From: an uncultured Acidimicrobiia bacterium
GTDB taxonomy: Bacteria; Actinomycetota; Acidimicrobiia; Acidimicrobiales; AC-14
Direction: 5' to 3'
Assembly: GCA_963836205.1 (NCBI GenBank)
Contig: CAWIIV010000021.1
Span: 1 to 54,449 of the forward strand
DNA length: 54,449 nt
Shown piece after piece: positions 10,268 through 38,623 of the stretch; position 1 is the stretch's first letter, and the number at the start of each line of letters is the position of its first letter. The notes below the pieces were generated by a model that saw nothing but the letters and a program-made list of their open reading frames with translations, ran no database searches and had not been told where the DNA came from. Position numbers and translations under genes: made by a program.

Positions 10268-10885
10268 TCAGAGCGGCCGCACCGACACCCACAGGGCCCG
10301 GGCGGGGGTGACGCCGGGGTTCGCCCACCGGTGGGGGCGGTCGGTGCGGAGGTGCAAGGCGTCGCCCGGCTCCATGCGGTAGGGGCGGCCGTCGACGTCG
10401 AACTCGAGGGCGCCCTCGAGGACGAAGACCAGCTCCTCGCCCTGGCGCTCGGCCCCGCCCGGGCCGTTGCCTGCGCCCGGCTCGACCGTCGCCACCGACC
10501 CGTCGAGGAGAAACCTCGCATACGAGCCGGTGATGGTGGCCATCTCCACGCCCGGCTGGGGGCTGAAGGCAGCCGGGCGACCGTCGGCGGGGGTGAACGC
10601 GACCGGCCCCGCGGCGGGGCCGTCCTCGTCGACGAACCACCCCACCGGGCGGTCGACCGCGTCGGCCAGCTTGAGCAGGGTGGTGATGGTGGGCACCATC
10701 CCGTTGCGCTCGATCTTGTGGATGGCGGCGGCCGACACGCCGGCCCGCTCGGCCAGCTGCTGCAGGGACAGGCCCCGCTGTTGGCGCAGCTCCCGCAGCC
10801 GGGGCCCGATGGCCCCGACGATGCGATCGACGGATGAGATCGGCTCGCTTGCGACCGCCGTGGTCGGCTCGCTGAGGTCTGTCAA
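10268..10885 (-). CDS. XRE-family HTH + cupin transcriptional regulator
   Basis: LRELRQQRGLSLQQLAERAGVS...KIERNG..PT; GEELVFVLEG...PGDAL...PHRWAN; divergent from the nitrile hydratase operon. Confidence 0.92.
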   Translation of the reverse strand: MTDLSEPTTAVASEPISSVDRIVGAIGPRLRELRQQRGLSLQQLAERAGVSAAAIHKIERNGMVPTITTLLKLADAVDRPVGWFVDEDGPAAGPVAFTPADGRPAAFSPQPGVEMATITGSYARFLLDGSVATVEPGAGNGPGGAERQGEELVFVLEGALEFDVDGRPYRMEPGDALHLRTDRPHRWANPGVTPARALWVSVRPL

Positions 10886-10917
10886 TTCCCGCCTCCTTGA
10901 CAGCGTGGGAAACGCAC

Positions 10918-10933
10918 GTCCAGTATAGTAAAC
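10918..10933. promoter_or_regulatory. Putative operator box 1 (GTCCAGTATAGTAAAC)
   Basis: AT-rich imperfect palindrome in the divergent XRE/oxidoreductase gap, with related boxes at 30996 and 34856. TTGACA lies at 10897 and TATAGT at 10924, but the 21-bp spacing is non-canonical. Confidence 0.6.
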
Positions 10934-10971: not shown

Positions 10972-12327
10972 TTGGCTCAAAGGATCGTGGTTGTGGGTGG
11001 GGGCGCCGCCGGCATCGGTGCCGCCGGCGCGGCCAAGGCTACCGACCGCGACGCCGGGGTCACCGTCTTCACCGAGTACGAGGACGCCGCCTACAGCCCG
11101 TGCGGCATCCCCTACGTCCACGGCAAGGAGATTCCGGACTTCGAGCGCCTCTTCCTGGCCACCAAGGAGGCGTACCGGGAGAACGGGATCGACATCCACT
11201 ACGACACCAAGGTCACCGCCCTCGACGTCGCCCGCAAGAACATCACCGTCGACGGGGCCGAGGTGGGCTGGGACCGGCTGATCCTCGGCACCGGGTTCGA
11301 CTACGCCGACCCCGGCATCCCCGGCACCGACCTGGGCGGGCTCTACTACGTCAAGAACATCCGCCGGGCCATGGAGTGGGACAAGGTCCTCGACACGGTC
11401 AAGGTCGCGGTGGTGGTGGAGGCGTCGCCCCTCGGCCTGGAGATGGTGACCGCCCTCGCCCACCGGGGCATCGAGACCCACCTGGTCGACAAGGCGCCGT
11501 GGGCCCTGGCCGAGGCGGCCGACCCCGACATCGCCGAGCCGGTGCAGGAGTCGTGGGCCGAGATGGGCGTGAAGATGCACTGGAACACCCCCGCCCGGGC
11601 CTTCGTCGGCGACGACGACGGCCAGGTCACGGCGGTGCGCACCGACGCCGGCGACCTTCCCGCCGACCTCGTCGTGGTGTGCACCAAGAAGCAGCCCAAC
11701 GCCCGCCTGGCCGCGTCCGCCGGACTCAAGATCGGCTCCACCGGCGGGATCGTGGTCGACGAGCGCATGCGCACGTCGCACCCCGACGTCTACGCCGCCG
11801 GCGACTGCACCGAGGTGCCCCACGGCGTGGCCAACCTGCCCATCCAGGGACTCTCCGGCAGCCACGCCTACGCCCAGGGCAAGGTGGCGGGCACCAACGC
11901 CGCCGGCGGCACCCGGGCCTACCAGCCGGTGTACGTCCCCTGGGGGATGGTGGCGGGCAAGTGGATGATCGGTGGCGTCGCCTTCGGGGAGACGCTGGCC
12001 ACCGCCTTCGGCATCCCCCACGTGGTGGGCGTCGCCAACGGGATCTCCCGGGCCCGGTACTACCCCGGCGTGAAGAAGGTGCGGGTGAAGCTGCTGGCCG
12101 AGCCGGGCAGCCTGCGCCTCATCGGGGCCCAGATGGTGGGGGGAGAGGGGATCAAGGAGCGGGCCGACTTCCTGGGCATGGCCGTCAAGACGGGGATCAC
12201 GCTCCGCGACCTGGCCACCATGGAGAACGTCTACTCGCCCCCGATCGGCGCCCTCAACGAGCCCATCTCGGTGGCGGCCCAGAACGCCCTGGCCGGCCTG
12301 GCGCCAAGCGTCAAGAGGCCAGGGTGA
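10972..12327 (+). CDS. FAD-dependent pyridine nucleotide-disulfide oxidoreductase (NADH oxidase/CoA-disulfide reductase family)
   Basis: GGGAAG FAD motif, YSPCGIPY redox Cys, TSHPDVYAAGDC, C-terminal YSPP; TTG start after GGAGG. Confidence 0.88.
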   Translation: MAQRIVVVGGGAAGIGAAGAAKATDRDAGVTVFTEYEDAAYSPCGIPYVHGKEIPDFERLFLATKEAYRENGIDIHYDTKVTALDVARKNITVDGAEVGWDRLILGTGFDYADPGIPGTDLGGLYYVKNIRRAMEWDKVLDTVKVAVVVEASPLGLEMVTALAHRGIETHLVDKAPWALAEAADPDIAEPVQESWAEMGVKMHWNTPARAFVGDDDGQVTAVRTDAGDLPADLVVVCTKKQPNARLAASAGLKIGSTGGIVVDERMRTSHPDVYAAGDCTEVPHGVANLPIQGLSGSHAYAQGKVAGTNAAGGTRAYQPVYVPWGMVAGKWMIGGVAFGETLATAFGIPHVVGVANGISRARYYPGVKKVRVKLLAEPGSLRLIGAQMVGGEGIKERADFLGMAVKTGITLRDLATMENVYSPPIGALNEPISVAAQNALAGLAPSVKRPG

Positions 12328-12328: not shown

Positions 12329-12649
12329 GTGGCCTCCTTCTCCCACTGGCTGCGGCAGAACTCCGAGCACTACCTGCTGGTCGACGCCCAGCGGCGGATC
12401 GCGGCCCGCGACGGCCTCGATCCGCCCCCGCCGCCCCGGGGCCTGCGCGACCAGTTCTGGCTCGGCGTGTTCGCCCCTGCCTACCGGCGGCTGCCCTGGA
12501 AGCTGCGGCGGATGACCATCCAGCTCATGCCGGGCAGCCACCGCCAGACCTGGACCCAGCCGCCACGGCGTGGCACCCCGGCGGTCGGCCCAGTCCCACC
12601 ACCGATGCCGCAGACCACCGATCCCGAGAACCCGAAAACGGAAAACTGA
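12329..12649 (+). CDS. Small hypothetical protein in the nitB operon
   Basis: Tightly packed between the oxidoreductase and nitB; GC3-biased codons; Trp/Arg-rich. Confidence 0.7.
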   Translation: MASFSHWLRQNSEHYLLVDAQRRIAARDGLDPPPPPRGLRDQFWLGVFAPAYRRLPWKLRRMTIQLMPGSHRQTWTQPPRRGTPAVGPVPPPMPQTTDPENPKTEN

Positions 12650-12658: not shown

Positions 12659-13147
12659 ATGCCGAAGACCGTCAACAACGAACGGCCCGCCGACGGAGAG
12701 GTCCTGTTCAACACCGAGGAGAAGCTCTTCGAGGACATCAAGGCCAACCCCGGGGAGAAGGCGTTCGTCTTCATCCACACCGTTCCCTACGAGGGATCGG
12801 TGGCGCTGGTGAACCTGCTGACCTCGACCCGCCTGGTGCGCAAGGGCTTCGACGTCAACATCATCCTGTACGGCCCGGGCGTGCTGCTGGCCTCGGGCAC
12901 CAGGGGCTTCCCGGCGGTGGGCCAGGAGGCCTTCCCCGGCCACATGGCCATCAACAACCAGATCAAGACCCTCATCCGGGAGGGGGCGAAGGTCTACGCC
13001 TGCCGCTTCGCCATGGGCGCCCTCTACGGCTTCCGGGAGGACGACCTCATCGACGGCGTCATTCCCTTCCATCCTCTCGACGTGCTCGACTCCGCCCTCA
13101 CCGCGTGGCGGGCGGGAGCCTTCCAGATCAACACCTGGACCGTCTGA
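12659..13147 (+). CDS. nitB: MSMEG_0572/Sll0783 (NitB-like) DsrE-fold protein
   Basis: EEKLFEDIKANPGEKA, HTVPYEGSVALVNLL, RGFP..G.EAFPGH, VYACRFA, C-terminal TWTV, all characteristic of this family. Confidence 0.88.
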   Translation: MPKTVNNERPADGEVLFNTEEKLFEDIKANPGEKAFVFIHTVPYEGSVALVNLLTSTRLVRKGFDVNIILYGPGVLLASGTRGFPAVGQEAFPGHMAINNQIKTLIREGAKVYACRFAMGALYGFREDDLIDGVIPFHPLDVLDSALTAWRAGAFQINTWTV

Positions 13148-14857: not shown

Positions 14858-15239
14858 GCTGGCAGTCGACGCCACCTGGGACGGCGGGTACCGCTGCCGG
14901 GTGAAGGCCCGGGACTTCGAGATCCGGGCCGACGAGCCGGTGAAGGCTGGTGGCGACGACACCGGGCCCCAGCCCACGGAGCTCTTCCTGGCGTCCCTCG
15001 CCTCGTGCTTCACCCTCGCCCTGGCCCACGTCGCCCGCAAGCGCGACATCGAGCTGCCCGACATCGCGGTGCGGGTGGTGGGCACCTACGACGGACCCAA
15101 GTTCGTCCACGTCCGGGTCGAGGTCAGCTCCAGCCATCCGCGGGACGAGTTGGAGAAGCTGGCCGAACGGGCATCCGCCGTCTGCTACGTGTCGAACACC
15201 ATTCGTGCGCTGCACGACACCGAGGTGGTAATCACATAG
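14850..15239 (+). CDS. OsmC/Ohr-family protein (start uncertain: ACG 14850, CTG 14859 or GTG 14901)
   Basis: ADEP...GGDDTGPQPTELFLASLASC, second Cys in CYVSNT; in-frame coding-like [15 protein letters not shown] upstream of the GTG. Confidence 0.85.
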   Translation, partial: TAELAVDATWDGGYRCRVKARDFEIRADEPVKAGGDDTGPQPTELFLASLASCFTLALAHVARKRDIELPDIAVRVVGTYDGPKFVHVRVEVSSSHPRDELEKLAERASAVCYVSNTIRALHDTEVVIT

Positions 15240-15253
15240 CGGAGGTGGTCCCC

Positions 15254-16180
15254 ATGGCCGACGTGATCGGGTTGTACCGGCGGGCGGTCGAGGAATTCGG
15301 CGCCCGGCTGCGGACAGTGTCCGCCGAGCAGTGGTCCGCGCCCACGCCCGACGCCGACTGGGACGTGCGGGCGCTGGTCAACCACGTGCTCAACGAGAAC
15401 CAGTGGGTGCCGCCGCTGCTGGAAGGCCTCACCATCGAGGACGTCGGCGACCGGTTCGAGGGCGACCAGTTGGGCGACGACCCCTTCTCCGCCTGGACCG
15501 ACGTGGCCGTGGCCGCCCTCGCCGCCTGCCAGGACGACGACGTGCCGCTGCGGGTGGTGCACGTGTCGTTCGGCGACATCACCGGCGAGGATTACCTGGC
15601 CCAGGTCACCACCGACCACGTGATCCACGCCTGGGACCTGGCCCGGGCCACGGGGGGCGACGAGCACCTCGACCCCGAGCTGGTCGACTTCGCCTACGGC
15701 TACCTCGCCCCCCAGGCCGAGATGTGGCGGGAGGCGGGTGCGTTCGGGCCCGCCACCAAGGCACCGGCCGGCGCCGACCGCCAGGCCGAGCTGCTGGCCC
15801 TCACCGGGCGTGACCCCCTCGGCACCGGCGAGCTGGCCGATGTGGCCGTCGCCGAGGAGGACGTCGACGACGAGAGCGGGAGTGACCAGCTGGCCACCCA
15901 CCTGGCCCTGCTGGCCGGCCAGGCCCGCACCATCCAGGGCGAGCTCGACAGCTACCTCACCACCCGCAGCCACTACTGGGACAACAAGGCCGAGGAGTGG
16001 GCCGCCGACCTGGGCCGCTACGACCGGGTGATCGTCGGGATGGCCCACATGCTCGGCTACCCGGTGCCGCCGCAACCGCCGCAGGGTGCGCAACGCCGCC
16101 TCAGCCGCGAGGAGCGGGCCGCCATCCAGGAGTTCCTGGAGGACCACAGCCTCGACCTCGGCCGCCCCCAGCCGACTTAG
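15254..16180 (+). CDS. TIGR03086/MDMPI-like (DinB superfamily) metal-binding protein with an extra C-terminal domain
   Basis: W.APTP..DWDVRALVNH, DHVIHAWDLARATG, LLALTGR, then about 110 additional residues. Confidence 0.82.
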   Translation: MADVIGLYRRAVEEFGARLRTVSAEQWSAPTPDADWDVRALVNHVLNENQWVPPLLEGLTIEDVGDRFEGDQLGDDPFSAWTDVAVAALAACQDDDVPLRVVHVSFGDITGEDYLAQVTTDHVIHAWDLARATGGDEHLDPELVDFAYGYLAPQAEMWREAGAFGPATKAPAGADRQAELLALTGRDPLGTGELADVAVAEEDVDDESGSDQLATHLALLAGQARTIQGELDSYLTTRSHYWDNKAEEWAADLGRYDRVIVGMAHMLGYPVPPQPPQGAQRRLSREERAAIQEFLEDHSLDLGRPQPT

Positions 16181-17013: not shown

Positions 17014-17042
17014 GTCGGATCTGCTTGGAGGGCGCCGCGGCA

Positions 17043-26849: not shown

Positions 26850-26856
26850 GGTCTGG

Positions 26857-29293: not shown

Positions 29294-30174
29294 GCCGGTT
29301 CCTCGGCCGCCGCCAGCCGGGCGAGGGCCCGTCCCACCAGTTCGAGCGAGGCGCCCCACGGCACCACGGCCACGCCCGGCTCGTCGGCGTTGTGGTCCTC
29401 CAGCAGGCAGCACTTGGTGAGGAGCGGGCCGCCTCCTTCGCCGTCGCCGGCTGGGAACAGGCGCCGGGGGCAGGTGTCGACCGTCTCGGGGACGTCGCCG
29501 TAGAACCACTCGTGGATGGCCCGCGACCTGGCACACCCGAGCAGTGTCCAGTCGGCCCGCTCGGGGTGCTGGTCGAGGAAGTCGACCGAGGCGCTGTCGA
29601 CCTCGATGCCCGACCCCTTGCACGGAAGCAGGTACCGGGCCGACGGCCTCGACCGGGCCAGCTCCACCAGGTCGACCACGTCGGGCACCAGCTCGATGGG
29701 AGGGAGATCCTCGGCCATGGCCAGCACCCGCCGGGCCTGGTCGAGGAGCTTGGCCGGCGCCGGCGGTTCCACGTCGCCCACACGGATGCGGACGGGCCGG
29801 GGGTCGAGGATGAAGCTCACGTGCCGGTAGCGGCCCTCCACCACCACACACCGGGCCGCGGGCGCCTGCTCCCGGGCCACCGCGGCCAGGGACGAGGGGA
29901 TGCCCGTGTCGACGGCGGGGTCGACCACGTAGGCGCACTCGTGGGGGAGGGCGAGGACGTCGACCGCCTTCACCGGGGCGAACAGGGCACCGTCGTCGGG
30001 ATGGTCGACCTCGACCACCGCGGTGGCGCCACCGCCGTTGCGGACCACCACGAACCTGGTGTGGCGGTACACCACCCGTCCGAGGAAGTGGGCGGTGAGC
30101 CCGTCGGCGGTGAGGGGGACGTCGACCGTCGCCACCGACACCTTCCGGTACTGACCGGGCACCAGGTTGGCCAC
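29278..30174 (-). CDS. Cys-rich hypothetical protein in the comA operon
   Basis: GGAGG SD; motifs YLLPCKGSG, LLGCARS..IH, DTCPR, LTKCCLLE. Confidence 0.78.
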   Translation of the reverse strand: MANLVPGQYRKVSVATVDVPLTADGLTAHFLGRVVYRHTRFVVVRNGGGATAVVEVDHPDDGALFAPVKAVDVLALPHECAYVVDPAVDTGIPSSLAAVAREQAPAARCVVVEGRYRHVSFILDPRPVRIRVGDVEPPAPAKLLDQARRVLAMAEDLPPIELVPDVVDLVELARSRPSARYLLPCKGSGIEVDSASVDFLDQHPERADWTLLGCARSRAIHEWFYGDVPETVDTCPRRLFPAGDGEGGGPLLTKCCLLEDHNADEPGVAVVPWGASLELVGRALARLAAAEEPAWAPA

Positions 30175-30185: not shown

Positions 30186-30974
30186 CTACCGCCGGGCGGT
30201 GGGAACCGGTACCCGCCCGATCGACAGCTCGATGGTGTCCGCTCGCAGCCCGAGGCGCAACGTCTCCAGGCCCAACACCTCGGCCACCGCGATGTTGGCC
30301 AGGTTGACCTCGGAGCCGAAGCGGCGGATGAACCACGCCTGCTGGTCCTTGCGGGGCGCCTCGAACACCAGCCGCTCCACGCCGCCGGCGGCCACCGCCG
30401 CGGCCAGGACGTCCTCCCGCACGCTCCCGTCGTCGTTGTAGATGCCGACGGTGCCGCTCTCCCGGCCCTCGGTGAGCACCCACCGGGCGCCCGCCGCCAG
30501 GTCGCCGGCGACCTCGTCCGCCCACTGCCCGGGCGGCATGCGGGCGACCCGGCTCTTGGCCCCCACCTCCGACAGGATGGTGAACCCCGACGCCGCCACC
30601 CGGATCAGCTCGTGCTTCTCGTCGACGGTCATCGCCGCCGCCCCCCGGGACACCTCGATGCACGGGAAGCCGGCGCCCGCGGCCCAGTCGAGCAGGTGGT
30701 CGGCCCGGCGCTGGCTCCAGGCCACTTCGAGCAGCGTCCCCCCGAGGCAGCCGAGCACGCCGTGATGGCCGAGGAGGGCGAGCTTGGCCTCCACGTGCGG
30801 GTCGACGTAGGCGGTGCCCCAGCCGAACTTCCACACGTCGACGTAGGCGCCGCACGTCGCCAGCAGGTTGCCGACCTCGGCCGGCGTGAGACCCTTGTCG
30901 AGGACGTGGGTGAGCCCGACGAGGCGGGGCTTGGCCGACCGCTCGGGCAGGTCGAGGGGAAACGGCGCGGTCAT
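30186..30974 (-). CDS. comA: Phosphosulfolactate synthase (ComA/XcbB)
   Basis: KPR..GLTHVLDKG, KFGWGT, GGTLLE, IEVSRG, SEVG.K, EGRESG..G, FEAP.K.QQ, VNLANI, LETLRLGLRADT. Confidence 0.95.
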   Translation of the reverse strand: MTAPFPLDLPERSAKPRLVGLTHVLDKGLTPAEVGNLLATCGAYVDVWKFGWGTAYVDPHVEAKLALLGHHGVLGCLGGTLLEVAWSQRRADHLLDWAAGAGFPCIEVSRGAAAMTVDEKHELIRVAASGFTILSEVGAKSRVARMPPGQWADEVAGDLAAGARWVLTEGRESGTVGIYNDDGSVREDVLAAAVAAGGVERLVFEAPRKDQQAWFIRRFGSEVNLANIAVAEVLGLETLRLGLRADTIELSIGRVPVPTARR

Positions 30975-30995: not shown

Positions 30996-31011
30996 GTCTA
31001 CTTTAGTGCAA
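30996..31011. promoter_or_regulatory. Putative operator box 2 (GTCTACTTTAGTGCAA)
   Basis: Lies in the 31-bp divergent comA/AIRS-like gap and overlaps the GTG at 31006; 10/16 identical to box 1. Confidence 0.5.
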
Positions 31012-31971
31012 GATATCGAGGCGCTGGCGGCGGCGGTCCGGGCCTTCCCCGGCCTGCGCAACAAGGCTCCCATCGCCATGGTGTCCGAGGTCTTCGGGGC
31101 GACCGACTGGCTCTCGGGACCGGGCGACGACGGCGCCCTGGTCGGAGGCGACCTGGTCGTCGGCGGCGAGGCCATCGCCCCTTCCTTCGTGGCCCACGAC
31201 CCCTTCGGGGCGGGGGTGGCGGCGGTGCTGGCCAACGTCAACGACCTGGCGGCCATGGGGGCGGTGCCGGTGGCCATCGTCGACACCGTGGTGGCGACGG
31301 CCGACGTGGCCCGCCTGGCCCTGGAGGGCATGCGGTACGCGGCCCGCCTGTACGACGTGCCGGTGGTGGGCGGCCACCTCACGTTGCACGACGGGCCGGC
31401 CGCCATCTCCGCCTTCGGCCTGGGTCGGCTGGCGGGAGGGCCGTCGTCGGTGTTGTCGGTGACCCGGGCCGCGGCCGGACAACGCCTGGTGGTGGCCGCC
31501 GTCACCGACGGGACGATGCGGGACGACTTCCCCTTCTTCCGCTCGTTCGACGAGCGCGACATCCTGCTGGCGGGCGACGTGCGCACGCTGGCGTCGGTGG
31601 CCGCGGCCGGGTCGTGCGTGGCGGCCAAGGACGTGAGCATGGCCGGCCTGATCGGCTCGCTGGCCATGCTGCTGGAGGCCAACCGCCTGGGCGTCACCGT
31701 CGGCCTCGACGCCTTGCCGGTGCCGGCCGGGGTCGACCTCACCCGGTGGCTCACGTGCTTCCCGTGCTTCGCCTTCCTCCTGTGCGTCCCCGCCGGCCGG
31801 GAGGACGACTGCCTGGGCGCCTTCCACACCCGGGGGATCTCGGCCGCCGTCGTCGGCACCCTCGACGGGACCGGACAGGTGGCGCTGCGTGGGGGCGGCC
31901 GCACCGCCGTCGTCCTCGACCTAACCTCCGAGACCGTCACCGGCCTGGCGGGCGACAAGGGAGGAACGCAG
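31006..31971 (+). CDS. AIR synthase/SelD/HypE-like protein (sll0787/NitF family); reads in frame into the downstream small domain
   Basis: GPGDDGA, ANVNDLAAMG, VPVVGGH, AAKDVSMAGLIGSL.MLLE, WLTCFP. Confidence 0.85.
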
Positions 31972-32199
31972 GTGAGCCAATCCGACACCGAGGCGCTCCG
32001 GCAGCAGCTCCTGGCCGGCGACGAGCACTTCGCCGCCCTGGCCGCGGAGCACGCCGGTTACGAGGAGCGCCTGGCCGAGCTGCGCGCCCTGCCGTACCCG
32101 ACCGTCGACGAGGAGGTCGAGGAGAAGACCCTCAAGAAGAAGAAGCTCGCCCTCAAGGACGAGATGGAGGTCATCCTCCGCCGCCACGGCGGCGGCTGA
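31972..32199 (+). CDS. DUF465/YdcH-like small coiled-coil protein (own SD, but in frame with the upstream ORF)
   Basis: HFAAL..EH..YEERL...LKKKKLALKDEM; GGAGG lies 7 nt before GTG 31972. Confidence 0.7.
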   Translation: MSQSDTEALRQQLLAGDEHFAALAAEHAGYEERLAELRALPYPTVDEEVEEKTLKKKKLALKDEMEVILRRHGGG

Positions 32200-32282: not shown

Positions 32283-32837
32283 TCAGGCGGGGGCGAGGGT
32301 GGCGAGGGCCTGTTGGCAGGCGTCGTCCATGCGGGAGCGGTGATTCGGGGTCGACTGGCAGTTGATCTGGTACTGGATGTCGCCGTCGAAGACGAACGTG
32401 AGGTCGGACTCGCCCTCGGCTGGCGGCTCCACCGGCACGTCGACGTACTGGAAGGCGAAGAATCCCCCGACGGTGGTCCGCTCGCCGGTGACCTCGGTGT
32501 CGACCAGTTCGGTCACCACCCCGTCGAGCTCGACCTGGACGTCGTCGAGGTTGTCCTCGGTGACAGGCGCGGCCAGCTCGTAGCGGCTGATGAAGATGGC
32601 GTTGTCGTCGTCGATCCCGACCCCCTGGTCGGCGGTCGACTCCCCGCCCGCGCTCCGGTCGACCTCGGTGACGTCGCCCAGCCGGAAGTCGGCCGGGTAC
32701 TCGAACGTGATCCCGAAGCGGTCGTCGTCAAACGTGGTGGTGTCGGCCTCGGCGGCCTCGTCGTCGTCGCCACCTCCGCAACCGACCATCAGCAGGACAG
32801 ACACCGCCACCACGAGCAGACGCCGGACCCCAGTCAT
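32283..32837 (-). CDS. Acidic lipoprotein (PsbP-like fold possible)
   Basis: LMVGC lipobox; FGITFEYP; last gene of the radical SAM-GNAT transcript. Confidence 0.75.
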   Translation of the reverse strand: MTGVRRLLVVAVSVLLMVGCGGGDDDEAAEADTTTFDDDRFGITFEYPADFRLGDVTEVDRSAGGESTADQGVGIDDDNAIFISRYELAAPVTEDNLDDVQVELDGVVTELVDTEVTGERTTVGGFFAFQYVDVPVEPPAEGESDLTFVFDGDIQYQINCQSTPNHRSRMDDACQQALATLAPA

Positions 32838-32847: not shown

Positions 32848-33324
32848 TTACGGACGGAACGGGCGCAGGTCGATGGCCATGGGCTGGTGGGTGACCCCGA
32901 CGTAGGTCTCCACTTCGCCGTAGGTGTGCCAGCCGATCTTCTCGAAGAAGGCGACGTTGGGCAGTTGGATGTGGGCCACCATCTCCCGCCCGCCCCGGGC
33001 CGCGGCGGTCACCACCGCGAATCGCACGAGGGGCGCCCCCATCCCCAGCCGGAAGCCGGGCAGCACGGCCAGCCGGTCGCCCTGCCACAACCCGTCGGCC
33101 GGGTCGAGTGGAAACAATCGGACGACGCCCACCGCCACCCCGTCGCACAGGCCCAGGGCGTGGACGGTGTCGGGAGCGGCGTCGTGGCTGTCGACGTCGG
33201 ACCCGTCGAACAGCCCCTGCTCCTCCACGAACACCTGGTGACGGATGCGGTGGTGGGTCTCCAGCTCCTCCGGCGTCGCAGCCGGGAAGCAGAGCGCCTT
33301 CCGGCGGACCGGCGTGATCGTCAT
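32848..33324 (-). CDS. MSMEG_0567 N-terminal/Sll0786 (NitE-like) GNAT acetyltransferase
   Basis: HHRIRHQVFVEEQGLF..SD.D, GVVRL, W.GDRLAV, LVRFAV, AHIQ..NV.FF..IGW. Confidence 0.88.
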   Translation of the reverse strand: MTITPVRRKALCFPAATPEELETHHRIRHQVFVEEQGLFDGSDVDSHDAAPDTVHALGLCDGVAVGVVRLFPLDPADGLWQGDRLAVLPGFRLGMGAPLVRFAVVTAAARGGREMVAHIQLPNVAFFEKIGWHTYGEVETYVGVTHQPMAIDLRPFRP

Positions 33325-34475
33325 CGCACGCGGGTGGGGGAGAGGCTCACCGCCGCTGCGGCTGCCGCCCGTTCCATCGACCCCATGGCCGAGCACGCCT
33401 GGCACCGGGCGCAGCCGGCGGCCACCCCTTGCGACCCGAGCCCCCGGGCGGTCAGATAGGGCACCACCTGGCGGTAGATCGTCTCGGTGTACTCGGCCGA
33501 GGGCGGACGGCAGTCCTCCAGCAGCGACCCCGCGATGGGCCGCAGGGGCACCACGAACGGGTAGACACCCATGTCGATGGCCCGCTTGCACCCGGCCACG
33601 GTCAAAGCCGGGTCCTCGCCCATCCCGAGGATCACGTACGTCGACACCTGCCCCTCGCCGAACAACGAGACGGCCCGCGCCCACGCCCCGAAGTACCCCT
33701 CGATCCCCGTGCGGGCCTTGGCCGGGGCGATGCGGGCCAGCACCACCGGGTCGAACGACTCCACGTGGATGCCGACCGAGTCGACGCCCATGTCGTGGAC
33801 CCGGTCGATCACGTCGAGGTGGCCGGGGTCGGGCGGCTCGAACTGCACCTCCACCGGCAGCCCGGCCGCCTCCTTCACCGCCTTGCCGCAGGCGGCCACG
33901 TACAGCGCCCCCTTGTCGACACCGGCAGTGCTGCCCGTCGTCAAGGTCGCGTCGACGGCCCCGTCGAGCTCCTTGGCCGCCACCGCCACCTCGGCCAGCT
34001 GCTCGGGACGCTTCTTGGCGATGGTGCGGCCCCCCGTCAGCGACAGCCCGATCCCGCAGAAGGCGCACTGGTCGTCGTTGCCCCAGTAGGCGCACGTCTG
34101 GAGGACGGTGCTGGCCAGCGAGTCGAGGTGGAGGAGGGCGATCTTCCAGTAGGGGATGCCGTCGGCGGTGGACAGGTCGTAGTAGCGGGGACGGGCGGCG
34201 CCGGTGGCGGCGGCCAGGCGTACGCCGTCGCGCCAGATCCCGAACCCATCGTCCTCCGGGCGCAGGACGTAGGGCGACGAGCGGGCGAAGTCGGTGTCGG
34301 TGGGCACGGTGACGGCCACGCCCTCGATCCAGAGCATCCCCGAGTCGCTGGGACCGGCCCCGCCCCGCCGTCCCTCCAGCCCGCCACCCCGCGCGTCGCC
34401 CAGCTCCAACCGCAGGCCCGCGCTCTGCAGCTCGGTGATGAGGACGGCCAGGTCGCCGGTAGAGGTGGCGGTCAC
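33321..34475 (-). CDS. MSMEG_0568 (NitD-like) radical SAM protein
   Basis: RRGGAGPSD, TADGIPYWKIALLH, LASTVLQTC-x8-CAFC, GVYPFVVPLRP, C-terminal AGCARCQAC. Confidence 0.92.
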   Translation of the reverse strand: MTATSTGDLAVLITELQSAGLRLELGDARGGGLEGRRGGAGPSDSGMLWIEGVAVTVPTDTDFARSSPYVLRPEDDGFGIWRDGVRLAAATGAARPRYYDLSTADGIPYWKIALLHLDSLASTVLQTCAYWGNDDQCAFCGIGLSLTGGRTIAKKRPEQLAEVAVAAKELDGAVDATLTTGSTAGVDKGALYVAACGKAVKEAAGLPVEVQFEPPDPGHLDVIDRVHDMGVDSVGIHVESFDPVVLARIAPAKARTGIEGYFGAWARAVSLFGEGQVSTYVILGMGEDPALTVAGCKRAIDMGVYPFVVPLRPIAGSLLEDCRPPSAEYTETIYRQVVPYLTARGLGSQGVAAGCARCQACSAMGSMERAAAAAAVSLSPTRVR

Positions 34476-34843
34476 GGCGAGACCCCGCCCCGCTTGGCCG
34501 CCAGCTCCCGGTAGACGATCGAGCAGGCCGCCCCCGCGATCATGGACAGGTCGATCACCGTGGCCGTCTCGGGGTCGAACGACGCCAGCCGCTGGGCCAG
34601 CTCCCGAGCCGCGCCGTCGGCCGCGGCCAGGGCCGTCAGGTCGGGACAGGTGGCCCGCAGCTGCTCCGCCACCCGGCCCACCAGCGACACCACCGTCTCG
34701 TACCGCTCGGGCATCACCATGACCACCGGGTAGAGCCGCTCCTCGGCCTGGAACCACCGCCACAGCACCTCCGCGGGCACCTCCGGGTCGCGGAACGGGC
34801 CGGCCCATGGCGTCTGCGGAGAGGGAGCGTCGGTGCCGCTCAT
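34472..34843 (-). CDS. Hypothetical protein, first gene of the radical SAM operon
   Basis: 123 aa; GTGA-coupled to the radical SAM; W..AEERLYP motif. Confidence 0.72.
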   Translation of the reverse strand: MSGTDAPSPQTPWAGPFRDPEVPAEVLWRWFQAEERLYPVVMVMPERYETVVSLVGRVAEQLRATCPDLTALAAADGAARELAQRLASFDPETATVIDLSMIAGAACSIVYRELAAKRGGVSP

Positions 34844-34855: not shown

Positions 34856-34871
34856 CTACACTATGATGGAC
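34856..34871. promoter_or_regulatory. Putative operator box 3 (minus strand GTCCATCATAGTGTAG)
   Basis: In the divergent gap between the radical SAM and carbamate kinase operons; 11/16 identical to box 1. Confidence 0.6.
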
Positions 34872-34908: not shown

Positions 34909-35895
34909 ATGGCCAAGACCGCGGTGGTGGCGCTGGGGGGGAACGCACTCACCCGGGAGGGGCAGGCCGGCACCTACGCCGAGCTCCAGGCCAACGCCAC
35001 CATGATGGCCCGCTCCGTCTGCTCCCTGCTCCGCACCGGCTGGCGGGTGGTCGTGGTCCACGGCAACGGTCCCCAGGTGGGCAACCTCGCCATCCAGCAG
35101 GAGGAGGGGGCCGGCCTGGTGCCGGCCCAGCCCCTGTTCTCCCTGGGGGCCATGACCGAGGGCCAGCTGGGCAGCCTCATCTGCCTCGCCCTCCGGGAGC
35201 AGGGCAAGCCCGAGTGGATGCGAGGGGCGGTGGCCCTCGTCACCCACGTGTCGGTGCAGCCCGACGACCCCGCTTTCGAGAACCCGACCAAGCCCATCGG
35301 CCCCTTCCTCACCGCCGAGGAGGCGGAGACGATGGGGGCGGCCCGGGGGTGGGTGGTCAAGCCCGACGCCGGGCGGGGGTTCCGGCGGGTCGTCCCGTCC
35401 CCCCAGCCGGTCACCATCCTGGAGACGCCGGCCATCCGGGCCCTTCTTGAGGCGGGCCAGGTGGTGGTGGCCGCCGGCGGCGGGGGCGTGCCGGTGGTGC
35501 GGTCGGAGAACGGCTTCCGCGGCATCGACGCCGTGATCGACAAGGACTACGCCGCCCAGCAGCTGGCCACGTCGCTGGCGGCCGACGCCCTGGTGCTGGT
35601 CACCGGCGTCGAGCTCGTCCAGCTCCACTACGGCACGCCCCAGCAGGTGCCCATCCACGAGATGACGGTGGCGGAGGCCGAGGCCTACCTGGAGGTGGGG
35701 GAGTTCCCCGAGGGGAGCATGGGACCCAAGGTGCGGGCCGCCACGCGGTTCCTGCGCCGGGGCGGCGAGGTGGCGGTGATCACCACCGCCCAGCTGGTCT
35801 ACGCCTCGCTGGAAGGAACGGTGTCGGAGCTGGAGGGGATCACCGGTACCCGAATCGTGCGGATGCGGCCACTGGTGGCGGCGGCGGGCGCATGA
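34909..35895 (+). CDS. arcC: Carbamate kinase
   Basis: VVALGGNAL, HGNGPQVG, NPTKPIGP, RRVVPSPQP, AGGGGVPV, AVIDKD, GSMGPKV. Confidence 0.96.
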   Translation: MAKTAVVALGGNALTREGQAGTYAELQANATMMARSVCSLLRTGWRVVVVHGNGPQVGNLAIQQEEGAGLVPAQPLFSLGAMTEGQLGSLICLALREQGKPEWMRGAVALVTHVSVQPDDPAFENPTKPIGPFLTAEEAETMGAARGWVVKPDAGRGFRRVVPSPQPVTILETPAIRALLEAGQVVVAAGGGGVPVVRSENGFRGIDAVIDKDYAAQQLATSLAADALVLVTGVELVQLHYGTPQQVPIHEMTVAEAEAYLEVGEFPEGSMGPKVRAATRFLRRGGEVAVITTAQLVYASLEGTVSELEGITGTRIVRMRPLVAAAGA

Positions 35896-37466
35896 TCCAC
35901 CGGGTGAAGGTCTTCCCCGGTACCTACCTCGACTCGGTGCTGCAGATGGGCGGCACCCGGGCCCTGAGCCAGGTGGAGGGGGTGGACTGGGCGGCCGCGG
36001 CGATGGCCACGCCGGCCAACGTCGACACCCTGGTGGGCGAGGGCTTCGAGCAGGCCGACCTCGACGGGGCGTCGGCCGACGACCTGTTCGTGGCCGTGCG
36101 GGCGGCCGACGACGACACCGCCGACCGGGCCGTCGCCGCCGGGGAGGAGGTCCTCTTCGCGTCCAAGCCCGGCGGCCGCCAGCCGGCGGGTGGGGCCAAG
36201 GAGCGCCCGGCGCGAACCATCGAGGAGGCAGTCGTCCTCGGAACGGATGTCAATGTGGCCCTCGTGTCGGTGCCGGGCGACTACGCGGCCATGGAGGCCC
36301 ACAAGGCGCTGACGGCCGGCCTCCACGTCCTGCTCTTCAGCGACAACGTGTCGGTGGCCGACGAGATCGAGCTCAAGGACCGGGCCACCGCCCTCGGGCG
36401 CCTGGTGATGGGTCCGGGTGCGGGCACCGCCATGCTCGGGGGGACGGGACTGGGCTTCGCCAACGCGGTCACGGCCGCGACCGATGGGGACGGCCGGCCC
36501 CGGGTGGGCGTGGTGGCGGCCGCCGGCACCGGCGCTCAGGAGGCGATGAGCCTGCTCGACCGGTGGGGGGCGACGGTTACCCACGTCATCGGCCTGGGCG
36601 GGCGCGACCTCACCGACGCCGTCGACGGCCGCATGGCCAAGATGGCGGTGGCCGCCCTGCGCGACGACCCCGGCACCGACGCCATCCTCCTCGTGTCCAA
36701 GCCCCCGTCGGTGCGGGTGGCAAGGGCCGTGGTGGAGGTGGCCCGGGCCGGCGCCACTCCGTTGGTGGCGGCGATGGTCGGCCTCGACGACGCGACCGGC
36801 GGGTACGGCGTCCCCGTCCTGCCCACCCTCGAGCAAGGAGTGATGGCCGCCCTCGACGCGGTGGGCCTGCAGGCGCCCGACGTCACCGCCGGCCTCGAGG
36901 GCGGCCTTTGGCTCGCCTGTGCCGGTCTCGCCCCGAGCCGCACCCTCGTCCGGGGACTGTTCTCGGGCGGCACCCTCTGTTACGAATCCCTCGTGATCCT
37001 CACCCGCCTGCTCGGGCCGGTGTGGTCGAACACGCCCCTCGACCACGCCTACGAGGTCCCCGCCCCCGACGGCGCCCACGTGTGCCTCGACCTGGGCGAG
37101 GAGGAGTACACCAAGGGCCGGCCCCACCCCATGATCGACCCTGCGGCCCGCATCGAGTGGATCCGCGCCGAGGGGTCCCGGCCCGACGTGGCCGTCGTCC
37201 TCCTCGACGTCGTGCTCGGCCACGGCTCCCACCCCGACCCGGCCGGTGAGCTGGCGCCGGTGTGCGAGGAGATCCGGGCCGGCGGGCGCGGGCCGCAGGT
37301 GGTGGCCTACGTCCTCGGCACCGAGCACGACCCCCAGGGCTTCGCCGGCCAGGTGGCCCGCATGGAGGCGGCCGGGTGCATCGTCACCGCCACCGCGGCC
37401 CGGGCCTCGCTGGCGGCGGCCGCCATCGCCCTGCGCCAGCCGGGCCTCGTCACGACCCGGCTGTGA
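35892..37466 (+). CDS. fdrA: FdrA (AllF)-like acyl-CoA synthetase-fold protein
   Basis: YLDSV..M, MATPAN, SVPGDYA, FSDNV, MGPG.GT, G.GGRDL, LVSKPP, GLFSGGTLC, GRPHPMIDP, DVVLG.G..PDPA. Confidence 0.93.
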   Translation: MIHRVKVFPGTYLDSVLQMGGTRALSQVEGVDWAAAAMATPANVDTLVGEGFEQADLDGASADDLFVAVRAADDDTADRAVAAGEEVLFASKPGGRQPAGGAKERPARTIEEAVVLGTDVNVALVSVPGDYAAMEAHKALTAGLHVLLFSDNVSVADEIELKDRATALGRLVMGPGAGTAMLGGTGLGFANAVTAATDGDGRPRVGVVAAAGTGAQEAMSLLDRWGATVTHVIGLGGRDLTDAVDGRMAKMAVAALRDDPGTDAILLVSKPPSVRVARAVVEVARAGATPLVAAMVGLDDATGGYGVPVLPTLEQGVMAALDAVGLQAPDVTAGLEGGLWLACAGLAPSRTLVRGLFSGGTLCYESLVILTRLLGPVWSNTPLDHAYEVPAPDGAHVCLDLGEEEYTKGRPHPMIDPAARIEWIRAEGSRPDVAVVLLDVVLGHGSHPDPAGELAPVCEEIRAGGRGPQVVAYVLGTEHDPQGFAGQVARMEAAGCIVTATAARASLAAAAIALRQPGLVTTRL

Positions 37467-38623
37467 ACCCCCGGATCGCCCTCGTCGCCCATTCCACGCG
37501 CCCGCGGGGTGGGATGGTGCACTCGCTGGCCCTGGCCGAGGCGCTGGCCGACCAGGGGGTCGACGTCACCGTGGTCACCCTCGGCGACCCCGCCGTCGGG
37601 CTCCACCGGCCCACCCCCGCCCCCCACCTCGTGCTGACCGCGCCCGCTCGGGCCGACTCCCTGGAGGAGCGGGTCGACCGGTCGGTCGACGCCCTCGCCG
37701 CGGGCCTGTTCGACCTGGCCGGTCGCTTCGACCTCTTTCACACCCAGGACTGCATCGCGGCCCGGGCCGCGGCCCGCGTCCGCGACGTCGGCACCGGCAT
37801 CCCGGTCGTGCGGACGGTGCACCACGTCGACGACTTCACCACCCCCAAGCTGGTCGACTGCCAGCGCCAGGCGATCCTCGAGCCGGACCGGGTGCTGGTC
37901 GTCAGCCGCCACTGGCAGGAGCTGCTCAAGGACGGCTACGGGGTGGATGCCGAGGTGATCCACAACGGGGTCGACGCCGCCCGCTTCGCCCAGGCGCCAC
38001 CGCCGGGGGCCACCGACGCCCTCCGGGCCAAGATCGGCGCCGGCGACCGGTTCGTGTTCCTGGCCGTGGGGGGGATCGAGCCCCGGAAGGGGAGCGTCCA
38101 CCTGCTGGCGGCGATGGGGGCGCTGGGCCCGGGCGCCATGCTGGCGGTGGTGGGCGGGCACTCGTTCCAGGACTACACCGCCTACCGCGACGACGCGCTG
38201 GCCTCGCTGCCCGGCCTGGGCCTGGAGCTGGGCCGCGACGTGGTGCTGGTGGGGACGGTGGCCGACGACGAGCTGCGGGCCTGGTACCACGCGGCCGACG
38301 CCCTCGCCTTCCCGTCGCTCACGGAGGGCTGGGGCCTCGCCATCCTGGAGGCGATGGCGGCCGGGCTCCCGGTGGTGGCCACCGACATCCCCGTGTTCCG
38401 GGAGTACCTCACGCCCGGCGTCGACGCCCTCCTGGTGCCCCCCGCCGACTCGGCCGCCCTGGCCACGGCCATGGCTGCCATCGCCGCCGACGCCGACCTC
38501 CGCCGGCGCCTGGCCGACGCCGGCCGGCGGGTGGCAGCCCGTTTCACCTGGGACGACGCCGCCCGCCGCCACCTCGACGTCTACAACGCCACCGCCAGGC
38601 TCGGCACCGGGCCCGCCCCGTGA
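37463..38623 (+). CDS. MSMEG_0565-family GT4 glycosyltransferase
   Basis: STRPRGGMVHSLALAEAL, HTQDCI, RTVHHVDDF, VGGIEPRKG, SFQDY, EGWGLAILEAMAAG. Confidence 0.92.
   Translation: MNPRIALVAHSTRPRGGMVHSLALAEALADQGVDVTVVTLGDPAVGLHRPTPAPHLVLTAPARADSLEERVDRSVDALAAGLFDLAGRFDLFHTQDCIAARAAARVRDVGTGIPVVRTVHHVDDFTTPKLVDCQRQAILEPDRVLVVSRHWQELLKDGYGVDAEVIHNGVDAARFAQAPPPGATDALRAKIGAGDRFVFLAVGGIEPRKGSVHLLAAMGALGPGAMLAVVGGHSFQDYTAYRDDALASLPGLGLELGRDVVLVGTVADDELRAWYHAADALAFPSLTEGWGLAILEAMAAGLPVVATDIPVFREYLTPGVDALLVPPADSAALATAMAAIAADADLRRRLADAGRRVAARFTWDDAARRHLDVYNATARLGTGPAP

Follow-up and report, generated by a model that had tools for sequence, protein, structure and literature searches.

Gene content of the locus

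The DNA studied here, called the window throughout, is a stretch of 54,449 nucleotides from contig CAWIIV010000021.1 of an uncultured Acidimicrobiia bacterium (assembly GCA_963836205.1), whose genome, G000 in our numbering, is a metagenome-assembled genome (MAG) of 4.05 Mb with a completeness of 88.6%. Between positions 10268 and 38623, four tightly packed operons bring together relatives of the Nit1C genes, a nitrile hydratase (NHase), genes for the biosynthesis of coenzyme M (CoM) and genes for the production and use of carbamoyl phosphate. An initial annotation, made from the sequence alone, had named genes of all these kinds, and each of them was located inside this interval by NCBIfam and Pfam assignments. 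The flavoprotein resembling CoA-disulfide reductase (CoADR), the OsmC protein, the XRE-cupin regulator and the small proteins h106, u102 and u150 were absent from its list and belong to the unit as well.

The region is one conserved and probably co-regulated supercluster, composed of two units. The first is a relative of Nit1C, also called gpr, with NitB, a u102-family protein, NitD, NitE, NitF and a GT4 glycosyltransferase (GT), in which FdrA, AllG (at times also AllH) and a carbamate kinase take the place of the CN-hydrolases, NitH and NitG of canonical clusters; many lineages have a Co-type NHase as well. The second is a CoM module, consisting of ComA, XcbA, XcbD, XcbE and XcbC plus the CoADR-like flavoprotein, h106 and an OsmC-type thiol peroxidase.

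Plain lists of open reading frames (ORFs) were useless here because the G+C content across the cluster region is 72-77%, and the 129 plain ORFs were uninformative. Genes were called by third-position GC, their start positions being approximate, and protein families were assigned with NCBIfam and Pfam, comparing the bit scores to the curated cut-offs. For close relatives, the window proteins were compared by tblastn with around 60 kb from each of seven genomes. A wide scan with one genome per species gave 261 stretches encoding a relative of XcbA, of which the best 80 were compared (the 80 loci); those with complete flanks of ±10 kb are called the 45 full loci. A set of around 110 loci gathers the supercluster, flanking and relatives' loci, and an even sample of 401 Actinomycetota genomes was used as the unbiased set. 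Locus counts include kin genomes and hence are not independent, and no statistical claim is made from them.

The genes of the supercluster are the following, with scores in bits given against the curated cut-off of the model.

10268..10885, minus strand: regulator with XRE-HTH and cupin domains, PuuR-like (NCBIfam), divergent from the flavoprotein operon; 31 of the 80 loci
10993..12327, plus strand: PNDR, flavoprotein resembling CoA-disulfide and CoA-persulfide reductases (NCBIfam CoA-disulfide reductase model, 235, below the equivalog cut-off of 579)
12329..12649, plus strand: h106, small conserved protein of 106 aa without Pfam or NCBIfam match; 43 of the 80 loci
12659..13147, plus strand: NitB, MSMEG_0572/Sll0783 family, DsrE-like (TIGR04044, 212 over 110; Pfam DsrE)
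13225-13893, plus strand: Co-type NHase, beta subunit
13890-14492, plus strand: Co-type NHase, alpha subunit
14489-14857, plus strand: NHase accessory protein with a His-rich tail
14901..15239, plus strand: OsmC/Ohr-like thiol peroxidase (NCBIfam); 53 of the 80 loci
22625..23077, minus strand: u150, small unknown protein with CxC and HHD motifs, downstream of AllH, no family match; 24 of the 80 loci
23126..23980, minus strand: AllH-like protein, DUF2877 (PF11392, 76)
23977..25383, minus strand: AllG-like protein, DUF1116 (PF06545, 216; relatives 3clq and 3dmy in the Protein Data Bank (PDB))
25380..26906, minus strand: XcbC-like lyase, phosphate elimination from phosphosulfolactate (NF052535, 423 under 575)
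26857..27855, minus strand: XcbE-like pyridoxal phosphate (PLP) enzyme (NF052537, 302 under 450)
27929..29293, minus strand: XcbD-like lyase, cysteine addition to sulfoacrylate (NF052536, 575.5 under 600)
29278..30174, minus strand: XcbA family, DUF7714, a [2Fe-2S] reductase in Xanthobacter (NF052538, 336 over 150; PF24830)
30186..30974, minus strand: ComA/XcbB phosphosulfolactate synthase (TIGR03849, 233 under 280)
31006..32199, plus strand: NitF, sll0787-type AIR-synthase-like protein of the PurM superfamily (226 under 321, yet the best match)
32848..33324, minus strand: NitE, GNAT acetyltransferase of the MSMEG_0567 N-terminal type (TIGR04045, 97 over 68)
33321..34475, minus strand: NitD, radical S-adenosylmethionine (rSAM) protein of the MSMEG_0568 family (TIGR04043, 379 over 304)
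34472..34843, minus strand: u102, conserved unknown protein upstream of the rSAM gene, no family match
34909..35895, plus strand: carbamate kinase ArcC (arcC, 343; PRK12352, 289 over 266)
35892..37466, plus strand: FdrA/AllF-like protein, resembling the alpha subunit of succinyl-CoA synthetase (NF004760, 377 under 433)
37463..38623, plus strand: GT4 glycosyltransferase of the MSMEG_0565 family (TIGR04047, 369 over 260)

The modules are physically interleaved, as the initial annotation had described. Overlaps of 4 nt join XcbC to AllG, AllG to AllH, ArcC to FdrA, FdrA to the GT, u102 to the rSAM gene, the latter to the GNAT gene, NHase beta to alpha, and alpha to the accessory gene, in such a way that AllG and AllH (YlbE and YlbF) are coupled behind the comA genes and the GT behind fdrA, while nitF starts 31 bp from the divergent comA. 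Several of the less known members show conserved positions or residues: the h106 gene always lies between PNDR and NitB and its alignment has 22 invariant columns, NitB has a single invariant Cys115, the OsmC-like protein invariant Cys36 and Cys95, and the XcbA-family protein five invariant cysteines. Members of the u102 family are 180-209 aa long in other lineages, and a longer homologue (from locus L087) retrieves relatives in 28 loci. A u102 homologue has no relative in Atlas, and the PDB contains no sequence relative of NitB or of the rSAM protein.

Conservation across genomes

The co-occurrence of these modules in other genomes, on which the earlier proposal hung, was found in all the sets. 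The full gene set is kept in the seven relatives, the combination recurs in most of the best 80 of the 261 loci, and the unbiased set gave it in at least 8 of the 11 genomes with an XcbA over cut-off (AllG adjoins the Xcb genes in 8, an EtnE-like neighbour is present in 1, and the contigs are shorter than 7 kb in 2). Among 41 relatives, including an unpublished genome (G008) used for this tally only, 9 have an XcbA match, and more than 2,000 XcbA relatives are present in a public collection of genome and metagenome proteins.

Genome G018, of another genus and 97% complete, has the cluster in a compact form of 19.5 kb, with the order GT<FdrA<ArcC< u102>rSAM>GNAT> NitF< ComA>XcbA>XcbD>XcbE>XcbC>AllG>AllH>u150> OsmC<NHacc<NHa<NHb<NitB<h106<PNDR< XRE> (NHa, NHb and NHacc being the NHase subunits and accessory protein). 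The hosts of the best 80 loci are Acidimicrobiia, at least seven Pseudonocardia species, Nocardioides guangzhouensis, Planosporangium flavigriseum, Nonomuraea, Streptomyces chiangmaiensis, MAGs of Kribbellaceae, Jiangellaceae, Propionibacteriaceae and Micromonosporaceae, Candidatus Dormiibacterota, and one MAG labelled Bacillota. Gene order varies between families, the gene content being kept, and xcb genes and allG share one operon in many families.

In the 45 full loci, ComA, XcbA, XcbD and XcbC are found 45 times each and XcbE 44 times, followed by GNAT (38), OsmC (35), AllG (34), NitF and NitB (32 each), h106 and FdrA (31 each), ArcC, rSAM and PNDR (30 each), GT (29), AllH (13) and NHase alpha (10). 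Both AllG and NitF are present in 32 of these loci, AllG without NitF in 2, NitF without AllG in none, and 11 have neither. Nine Pseudonocardia-type loci seemed at first to be devoid of the Nit and carbamoyl genes. A closer look at S. chiangmaiensis and at three Pseudonocardia genomes, of which one belongs to the nine loci, located the seemingly absent genes just past a SARP regulator in every case. All three Pseudonocardia genomes share the layout ArcC>FdrA>GT> NHacc<NHa<NHb<(AllH<)AllG<, with the rSAM gene and NitF alongside and the NHase genes in the allG operon, separated by gaps of 18-74 bp. The Nocardioides type is a minimal core of 16.5 kb, without AllH or NHase.

Relationship with Nit1C and types of clusters around the radical SAM gene

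Nit1C was defined, in the account of PMC1199592, as seven genes without known function. It corresponds (Podar 2005) to the gpr cluster MSMEG_0565-0572 of M. smegmatis and to sll0783-0787 of Synechocystis. In Pseudomonas, Nit1C has been linked to cyanide assimilation through NitC (PMC11049912), whereas the canonical gpr cluster of M. smegmatis is described as being induced more than 500-fold by nitrogen starvation, as conferring peroxide resistance and as not being induced by peroxide (PMC6039565). At the family level the window shares with Nit1C the NitB, MSMEG_0568 rSAM, GNAT, AIR-synthase-like and MSMEG_0565 GT proteins, and the flavoprotein and the unknown protein of around 100 aa that precede NitB are positional analogues of NitH and NitG. 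The identity to canonical actinobacterial copies is only 44-48% for NitB and 44-49% for the rSAM protein. The remaining Nit1C members were searched for in the whole 88.6%-complete genome: the best match to the subfamily-1 nitrilase (sll0784 type) reached 16 bits against a cut-off of 503, the NitH flavoprotein (MSMEG_0569, COG2072; TIGR04046) gave at best 27 bits, on another contig, and NitG (MSMEG_0570, TIGR04042) had no match.

The MSMEG_0568 rSAM protein was found over cut-off in 17 of the 401 genomes of the even sample, and with E≤1e-60 in 26. The loci fall into different types. The canonical one (5 loci from 3 families) has the order NitB, CN-hydrolase, MSMEG_0569 (641 bits), rSAM, a GNAT::AIRS fusion, a second CN-hydrolase and GT. 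NitB and the rSAM gene are present in all of these loci and GNAT and NitF in the 4 untruncated ones; MSMEG_0570 is fused to MSMEG_0569 in one locus, and FMN monooxygenases, including an SsuD-like one, follow in the canonical locus scanned (L121). FdrA, AllG, ArcC, Xcb and PNDR are found in none of the 5. A second type, type II (3 loci of one family), is arranged as ArcC<, NitB>, u102-like>, Amidohydro_2>, rSAM>, GNAT>, NitF<, AllG>, with a PLP enzyme in all three, SsuD-like and DAP-decarboxylase-like genes in two, and FdrA and GT in the sole locus whose flank reaches so far. Type II loci have no Xcb, PNDR, h106, OsmC or CN-hydrolase, and XcbA is found in none of the 7 genomes of that family. 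A third group, of 10 loci whose rSAM scores are lower, has an isolated rSAM gene.

Queries for the CN-hydrolases and for NitH and NitG matched the 4 untruncated canonical loci (4/4), and none of the type II loci, of the around 110 loci, or of the window. Thus, the CN-hydrolase/NitH/NitG ending and the FdrA/AllG/ArcC ending are mutually exclusive, and the cluster of the window is type II plus Xcb, PNDR-h106 and OsmC. One supercluster locus has an Amidohydro_2 protein that shares 67% identity with the type II copies. Compared with type II, the window proteins AllG, FdrA, NitF and GT are 39-45% identical and NitB is 74-77% identical, in such a way that the enzymes proposed below to handle a thiol-bound intermediate are those that have diverged the most.

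The so-called nitrilases of canonical clusters are themselves poor matches to nitrilases, with only 27-35 bits against the Nit6803 model (L121:7848-8711, L121:12439-13290 and L123:7600-8448). Two of the three canonical CN-hydrolases scored best against N-carbamoylputrescine amidase AguB (105 and 102 bits; cut-off 410), and the third against an archaeal nitrilase model (90 bits), which suggests that they may be carbamoyl-amidases rather than nitrilases. TIGR04048 was discarded as a marker of the canonical cluster, as it was over cut-off in none of the 401 genomes and canonical loci carry divergent CN-hydrolases. Between ArcC and FdrA of type II, genes resembling PLP aminotransferases/C-S-lyases, SsuD-like alkanesulfonate monooxygenases and DAP/ornithine decarboxylases were observed (L126:14148-17671 and L127:5107-6471; compare L121:15850-17019).

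NitF had been placed by the initial annotation in the same superfamily as HypE, and this kinship stood at the level of the PurM superfamily only: the match to HypE is weak (E 3e-4, 23 bits), the one to ThiL is better (1e-5), and the NitF sequence does not end in cysteine. In HypE it is a C-terminal cysteine that carries the carbamoyl group. The synthesis of cyanide for [NiFe]-hydrogenases by HypF and HypE goes from carbamoyl phosphate through an S-carbamoyl thiol to an ATP-dependent dehydration by a PurM-superfamily protein. The window differs from that system in that its NitF is closer to ThiL and is devoid of the terminal cysteine, and no HypF is present. Several members of the window's genus have a NitF whose residues ~320-397 form a C-terminal DUF465 coiled-coil extension: G001, G006 and G007 match over the full length, whereas the match ends around residue 315 in G002, G004 and other genera.

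The nitrile hydratase

All three NHase proteins are over cut-off (beta 183 against 152, alpha 294 against 250, accessory 72 against 46). The alpha subunit carries VCTLCSC, which we take to be the cobalt-type active-site motif, and the nearest PDB entries are Co-type NHases. The enzyme thus resembles the Co-type NHase of P. thermophila (PDB 1IRE, 4OB1) in its Co-type features, with alpha scoring 240-297 bits against NHases of the PDB, and it has in addition a His-rich accessory protein. Its identification as a thiocyanate hydrolase was rejected, given that the gamma-subunit model TIGR03887 gave 194 bits against a cut-off of 291 and the PDB thiocyanate hydrolases 154-160 bits, versus 240-297 for NHases.

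The NHase alpha embedded in the cluster is 73-90% identical to that of the window across classes, versus 58% for a paralogue. P. thermophila has two Co-type NHases (L112, G044:C8, and L113, G044:C15). The crystallised one was considered as the cluster enzyme and rejected, since its identical match is the paralogue at another locus; the supercluster copy is a distinct gene, scoring 238 bits to 1IRE, and is unstudied. In this strain no FdrA lies between ArcC and GT, and the cluster abuts the cobalamin genes CobN, CobG, CobI/J and CobK. In the loci that have them, NHase genes are co-operonic with NitB or with AllG. The proposal that NHase, an AllFGH-like complex and ArcC take the place of the Nit1C nitrilase gained support from the mutual exclusion of the two endings and from the presence of NHase in the allG(-allH) operon in Pseudonocardia.

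The carbamoyl-phosphate module

In E. coli, AllFGH and AllK convert oxalurate to carbamoyl phosphate and this to ATP, as described in PMC11326118. All three subunits of this enzyme (OXTCase) and the carbamate kinase have counterparts in the window, the kinase and FdrA genes being translationally coupled. Identities to the E. coli proteins are 36% for FdrA to AllF, 36% for AllG, 42.5% for ArcC to AllK, and 37% over 150 aa for AllH, the last being a partial alignment. The genes of the window are split over two operons, unlike allFGHK of E. coli, and E. coli AllA, AllB, AllC, AllD and AllE had no match in the window nor in any of the around 110 loci. The cluster would extend the recently discovered FdrA/AllG family of carbamoyltransferases beyond oxalurate.

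The N-terminus of AllG (residues 2-53) is homologous to the last ~50 residues of E. coli AllF/FdrA, and the FdrA of the window lacks that piece. The C-terminal segment of AllF has moved to the N-terminus of AllG, which fits a single complex.

Agmatine catabolism shows the same choice between a hydrolytic removal of the carbamoyl group and a phosphorolytic one that yields ATP, although this is an analogy only. Its hydrolytic branch uses the N-carbamoylputrescine amidase AguB, a CN-hydrolase. The alternative is formed by putrescine transcarbamylase and carbamate kinase (PMC3282769), and the carbamoyltransferase of the window belongs to a family unrelated to this transcarbamylase.

The coenzyme M module

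The CoM-like biosynthesis proposed in the initial annotation proved to be stronger than claimed, as the XcbA/DUF7714 protein (336 bits over 150) completes a five-gene set in which the two fumarase-superfamily lyases are XcbC and XcbD and the PLP enzyme is XcbE. ComA, XcbA, XcbD, XcbE and XcbC form the complete bacterial CoM set, and each has the corresponding Xcb/ComA model as its best NCBIfam match. The five-enzyme Xcb pathway has been reconstituted in vitro for Xanthobacter (PMC9457059). A literature search found XcbD and XcbE named in three relevant papers only, namely this one on the pathway, one on vinyl-chloride genomics and one on the rumen.

The order ComA-XcbA-XcbD-XcbE-XcbC is the same as in Nocardioides JS614, among the xcb clusters of alkene and vinyl-chloride oxidisers, with identities of 45-56% (XcbC 47%, XcbE 45%, XcbD 56%, ComA 51%), and the proteins are 33-44% identical to those of Xanthobacter autotrophicus Py2. 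By contrast, the surroundings are different. The CoM operon of JS614 adjoins EtnE and alkene monooxygenase genes and known xcb clusters (Xanthobacter Py2, JS614) are plasmid-borne, whereas the xcb genes of the window are chromosomal and tied to Nit-type genes and the carbamoyl module, without epoxyalkane:CoM transferase, alkene monooxygenase or 2-ketopropyl-CoM enzymes near the cluster. With JS614 EtnE and monooxygenase alpha as queries, no match was found in the 80 loci, nor in the genomes G000 (88.6% complete) and G018 (97%). To our knowledge, the alkene/epoxide route is the only known bacterial use of CoM, so that the only known bacterial role of this thiol is not encoded here.

PNDR has one conserved cysteine, Cys37 (YSPCGIPYV), kept in 95% of 41 sequences, and its closest PDB relatives are NoxA-3, CoA-persulfide reductase and CoADR. 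The presence of PNDR, h106 and OsmC follows that of Xcb, and neither type II nor canonical loci contain them, in such a way that they form one add-on together with the CoM genes. Mycothiol seems to have been retained in the hosts: of 5 genomes, 2 have an MshC over cut-off, and the three Acidimicrobiia have an MshC-like gene of 410-433 bits. This argues for a dedicated role of CoM and against a general one. In Xanthobacter pXAUT01 (284932-303756, L111), XcbD is followed by a "CoA-binding domain protein", possibly succinyl-CoA-synthetase-like, and by an FAD-dependent pyridine nucleotide-disulfide oxidoreductase instead of XcbE; the latter is 28% identical to PNDR of the window, an arrangement that echoes the association of FdrA with a flavoprotein.

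A shared promoter element

A 13-bp element, GTCYANNWTAGTR, has exactly three occurrences in the window, one for every divergent promoter region, and is found in none of 100 shuffles; the pattern was derived from these three sites, so that its count in the window is by construction.

10918..10930, plus strand: site 1, overlapping a TATAGT -10-like hexamer upstream of the PNDR operon
30996..31008, plus strand: site 2, between comA and nitF
34859..34871, minus strand: site 3, between the u102-rSAM operon and the arcC operon

In the alignment of the three divergent regions, 7 genomes from three genera, counting that of the window, showed the same invariant promoter blocks. When up to 1 mismatch was allowed in distant loci, the element was detected in 12 of 44 NitF/ComA, 8 of 29 ArcC and 6 of 31 PNDR upstream regions, with a background of 0.014 per 270 bp. 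The sharing of this element argues that the units are probably co-regulated, and since its sites overlap -10-like hexamers it may be the operator of the XRE-cupin regulator. A strict scan for the GlnR box, for which we used the pattern GTnAC-n6-GnAAC, gave no site between 8 and 40 kb, and this candidate was dropped in favour of the conserved 13-bp element.

Neighbouring genes

Other features were found beside the cluster or inserted into it.

4687..8250, plus strand: large SARP-type regulator with Trans_reg_C, BTAD, AAA_16/NB-ARC and TPR domains (Pfam)
8407-9378, plus strand: DrrA-like ABC ATPase (Pfam), conserved mainly in the window's genus
9443-10261, plus strand: ABC-2 permease (Pfam), conserved mainly in the window's genus
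15245..16180, plus strand: TIGR03086/DinB-type protein, mycothiol-dependent enzyme family (NCBIfam/Pfam)
32283..32813, minus strand: u176, with a probable lipoprotein-like N-terminus and no Pfam or NCBIfam match; conserved only at the genus level, 3 of the 80 loci

The SARP-type protein is a probable regulator of the cluster; homologues lie beside it in the window's genus, in G018 and in G016, in 14 of the 80 loci, and in the extended Pseudonocardia and S. chiangmaiensis loci. The DrrA-like pair (8407..10261) is possibly an exporter. The TIGR03086/DinB-type gene is found in relatives of the same genus and in 0 of the 45 full loci elsewhere, and thus is an addition limited to that genus. The cluster is split by positions 16311-22606, which encode a RibD_C protein, two unknown ORFs, an ECF sigma factor and a TPR-CHAT protein of 877 aa. 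Members of the window's genus have this segment, whereas the compact cluster of G018 lacks it, the ECF and CHAT homologues of that genome lying around 10 kb away; the segment is thus an insertion and not part of the system.

Directly after the cluster, positions 38746-43410 encode a protein of 1554 aa with right-handed beta-helix and Ig-like (ASH/HYDIN-type) domains, probably secreted or located at the surface, without homologue beside the cluster in the compared relatives. Further on, 5 kb downstream of the cluster, a weak relative (26% identity) of the decarboxylase-like gene of type II and a methyltransferase (43546-45808) are conserved in the window's genus. Between 48001 and 52000 the G+C content falls to 58-60%, versus 70-77% elsewhere, and this part may be foreign or mobile DNA. 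A search with Rfam at gathering thresholds detected no known RNA element in the window or in 4 loci, and hence no riboswitch names a ligand.

Genes for the nickel-pincer nucleotide cofactor (LarE, LarB and LarC) were observed inside 11 variant loci of Pseudonocardia and S. chiangmaiensis (L048, L043, L045, L047, L050, L054, L055, L057, L060, L078 and L116), all three being over NCBIfam cut-offs in L048:5598-8289, with no LarA-like user enzyme in sight. LarB was considered as a hidden requirement of the system and rejected: it is found elsewhere in G000 (C23:104542), G004, G018 and G041, is not over cut-off in G002, and is common in control genomes.

A proposed pathway and its alternatives

Judged by its gene content, the cluster is not a member of Nit1C, of the alkene-type CoM clusters or of the allantoin OXTCase clusters, even though it is built from their parts, and it is derived from Nit1C. 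That it encodes a new pathway is a serious possibility. The initial annotation regarded the combination as new, and our literature searches found no publication that describes it, with around 1.7 million PubMed Central articles outside the reach of the searches, so that an earlier mention is possible.

The best explanation for the whole would be a CoM-associated, ATP-yielding pathway for carbamoyl nitrogen, to which we assign a rough probability of 0.42. The Nit-type enzymes would make or handle a small nitrogen compound, the final form of which is an intermediate of the carbamoyl type. Canonical clusters would cleave this intermediate by hydrolysis, and the cluster studied here by phosphorolysis through FdrA and AllG, giving carbamoyl phosphate, from which the carbamate kinase would obtain ATP, NH3 and CO2. 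Where present, the NHase would hydrate a cyano precursor to the amide or carbamoyl form. The carbamoyl-type end point is suggested by the fact that FdrA, AllG and ArcC replace CN-hydrolases scoring best against N-carbamoylputrescine amidase, and the presence of the carbamate kinase beside FdrA and AllG would mark carbamoyl phosphate as a product destined for ATP and ammonia, as in allFGHK.

CoM would be the dedicated thiol of this pathway, kept reduced by the CoADR-like enzyme, with about even odds for two roles: carrier of the C1-N unit, or reductant for NitB and OsmC. Thioester phosphorolysis is the native chemistry of succinyl-CoA-synthetase-like proteins. The role of carrier is suggested because FdrA is one of these and because AllG, FdrA, NitF and GT are the proteins most diverged from type II; that of mere reductant, because type II lacks CoM and because the phenotype of gpr is peroxide resistance. 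A fuller version, in which CoM is the thiol handle of ATP-conserving nitrogen scavenging, widespread in soil Actinomycetota and Dormibacterota, with the C1-N unit placed on the CoM sulfur, hydrated by the Co-NHase, phosphorolysed by FdrA/AllG and consumed by the carbamate kinase, looks doubtful as a whole.

This version is close to the scheme of the initial annotation, in which a cyano group captured as S-cyano-CoM is hydrated by the NHase to S-carbamoyl-CoM and then phosphorolysed. From that interpretation, the co-occurrence of the modules and the idea of a phosphorolytic, ATP-yielding substitute for the nitrilase stood, whereas the specific chemistry faces counter-evidence in the CoM-free type II clusters and in the irregular presence of NHase and AllH. 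In addition, the NHase is an ordinary Co-type enzyme and not a thiocyanate hydrolase, the match of NitF to HypE is weak, and the scheme leaves the rSAM, GNAT, GT, NitB, OsmC and CoADR-like proteins without a role.

Several observations weigh against the proposed CoM-associated pathway in general. Type II clusters have FdrA, AllG and ArcC without CoM genes, so that CoM is not essential to that chemistry as such, and type II itself rests on three genomes of one family. NHase is frequent and not universal, being found within ±10 kb in 11 of the 80 loci, and Nocardioides guangzhouensis has no NHase alpha in its genome despite a complete minimal cluster. AllH is present in only 13 of the 45 full loci, though purification of the E. 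coli enzyme gave AllF-AllG-AllH. Most Xcb, ComA, FdrA and NitF scores are below the NCBIfam curated cut-offs, the XcbA family being above its own. The promoter element was defined from the window itself and is not found in Nocardioides-type loci, and the locus counts are partly those of kin. The functions of the members are predicted from the genes, and the direction of the carbamate kinase is taken to be catabolic by analogy with known catabolic operons. Finally, the SARP regulator, the ABC exporter pair, GT, GNAT and rSAM proteins are also typical of the biosynthesis of specialised metabolites.

This last point leads to the alternative that survives best, which nevertheless appears unlikely. 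According to it the cluster makes a specialised metabolite or cofactor derived from CoM: the kinase would supply carbamoyl phosphate, FdrA/AllG would carbamoylate a thiol or amine, NitF would dehydrate or activate the amide in the manner of HypE and PurM, GT, GNAT and rSAM enzymes would tailor the product, the ABC pair would export it, and the NHase would recycle or protect. Besides the tailoring enzymes and the DrrA-like pair, this reading can point to the SARP/BTAD regulator adjacent to the cluster in several families and to the LarE, LarB and LarC cofactor genes inside 11 variant loci. A precedent also exists in an actinomycete antibiotic, into which ComA feeds a sulfonate (PMC9136965). However, no non-ribosomal peptide synthetase, polyketide synthase or precursor peptide is encoded in the window, the characterised FdrA/AllG/AllH and kinase module is catabolic, the canonical relatives are genes of nitrogen starvation or cyanide assimilation, and the housekeeping pool of carbamoyl phosphate would suffice. 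We know of no gene cluster with its own carbamate kinase making carbamoyl phosphate for biosynthesis.

Redox defence is rather unlikely too. Here Xcb, the CoADR-like reductase, h106 and OsmC would form a self-contained thiol peroxidase system, co-expressed because nitrogen starvation brings oxidative stress, and FdrA, AllG and ArcC would act on a ureido compound unrelated to CoM. The single cysteine of PNDR, typical of CoADR/Npx, both catalytic cysteines of OsmC, the joint co-variation of PNDR, h106 and OsmC with Xcb (and their absence from type II and canonical loci) and the ability of type II to run FdrA/AllG/ArcC without CoM are all expected from such a system. But many families have xcb and allG in a single operon, one promoter element is common to all the units, and the hosts appear to keep mycothiol. 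The M. smegmatis cluster speaks in both directions, as it is described as conferring resistance to peroxide and as not being induced by it (PMC6039565).

The remaining alternative, independent neighbours, with an ordinary oxalurate OXTCase, an ordinary NHase, a Nit1C remnant and CoM genes for alkene/epoxide metabolism, is close to refuted: each module has a known stand-alone counterpart, but the combination is kept across classes and also in a second phylum while the gene order varies, adjacent genes overlap, the promoter element is common to the operons, and neither AllA-AllE homologues (window and around 110 loci) nor EtnE/alkene monooxygenase (80 loci, G000 and G018) were found.

Significance

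CoM has so far been regarded as a cofactor that methanogens and a few alkene oxidisers use. The supercluster, which many soil actinobacteria carry, points to a new bacterial use of this thiol, which, if true, would be its third role, beside methanogenesis/alkane activation and alkene/epoxide metabolism. Most of the XcbA-type sets sampled in Actinomycetota are in this different and conserved context, which would change the use of CoM as a marker and suggests a source of CoM in soil.

For Nit1C/gpr, the alternative endings are a first comparative clue to the intermediate, with a bearing on cyanide bioremediation, on the peroxide tolerance of mycobacterial biofilms and on nitrogen starvation in cyanobacteria. 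If the proposed pathway is true, the canonical cluster would process a carbamoyl- or cyano-type intermediate, settling a question that has been open since 2005. Experiments are possible in cultured and harmless carriers, namely Nocardioides guangzhouensis, Planosporangium flavigriseum, several Pseudonocardia species and Streptomyces chiangmaiensis.

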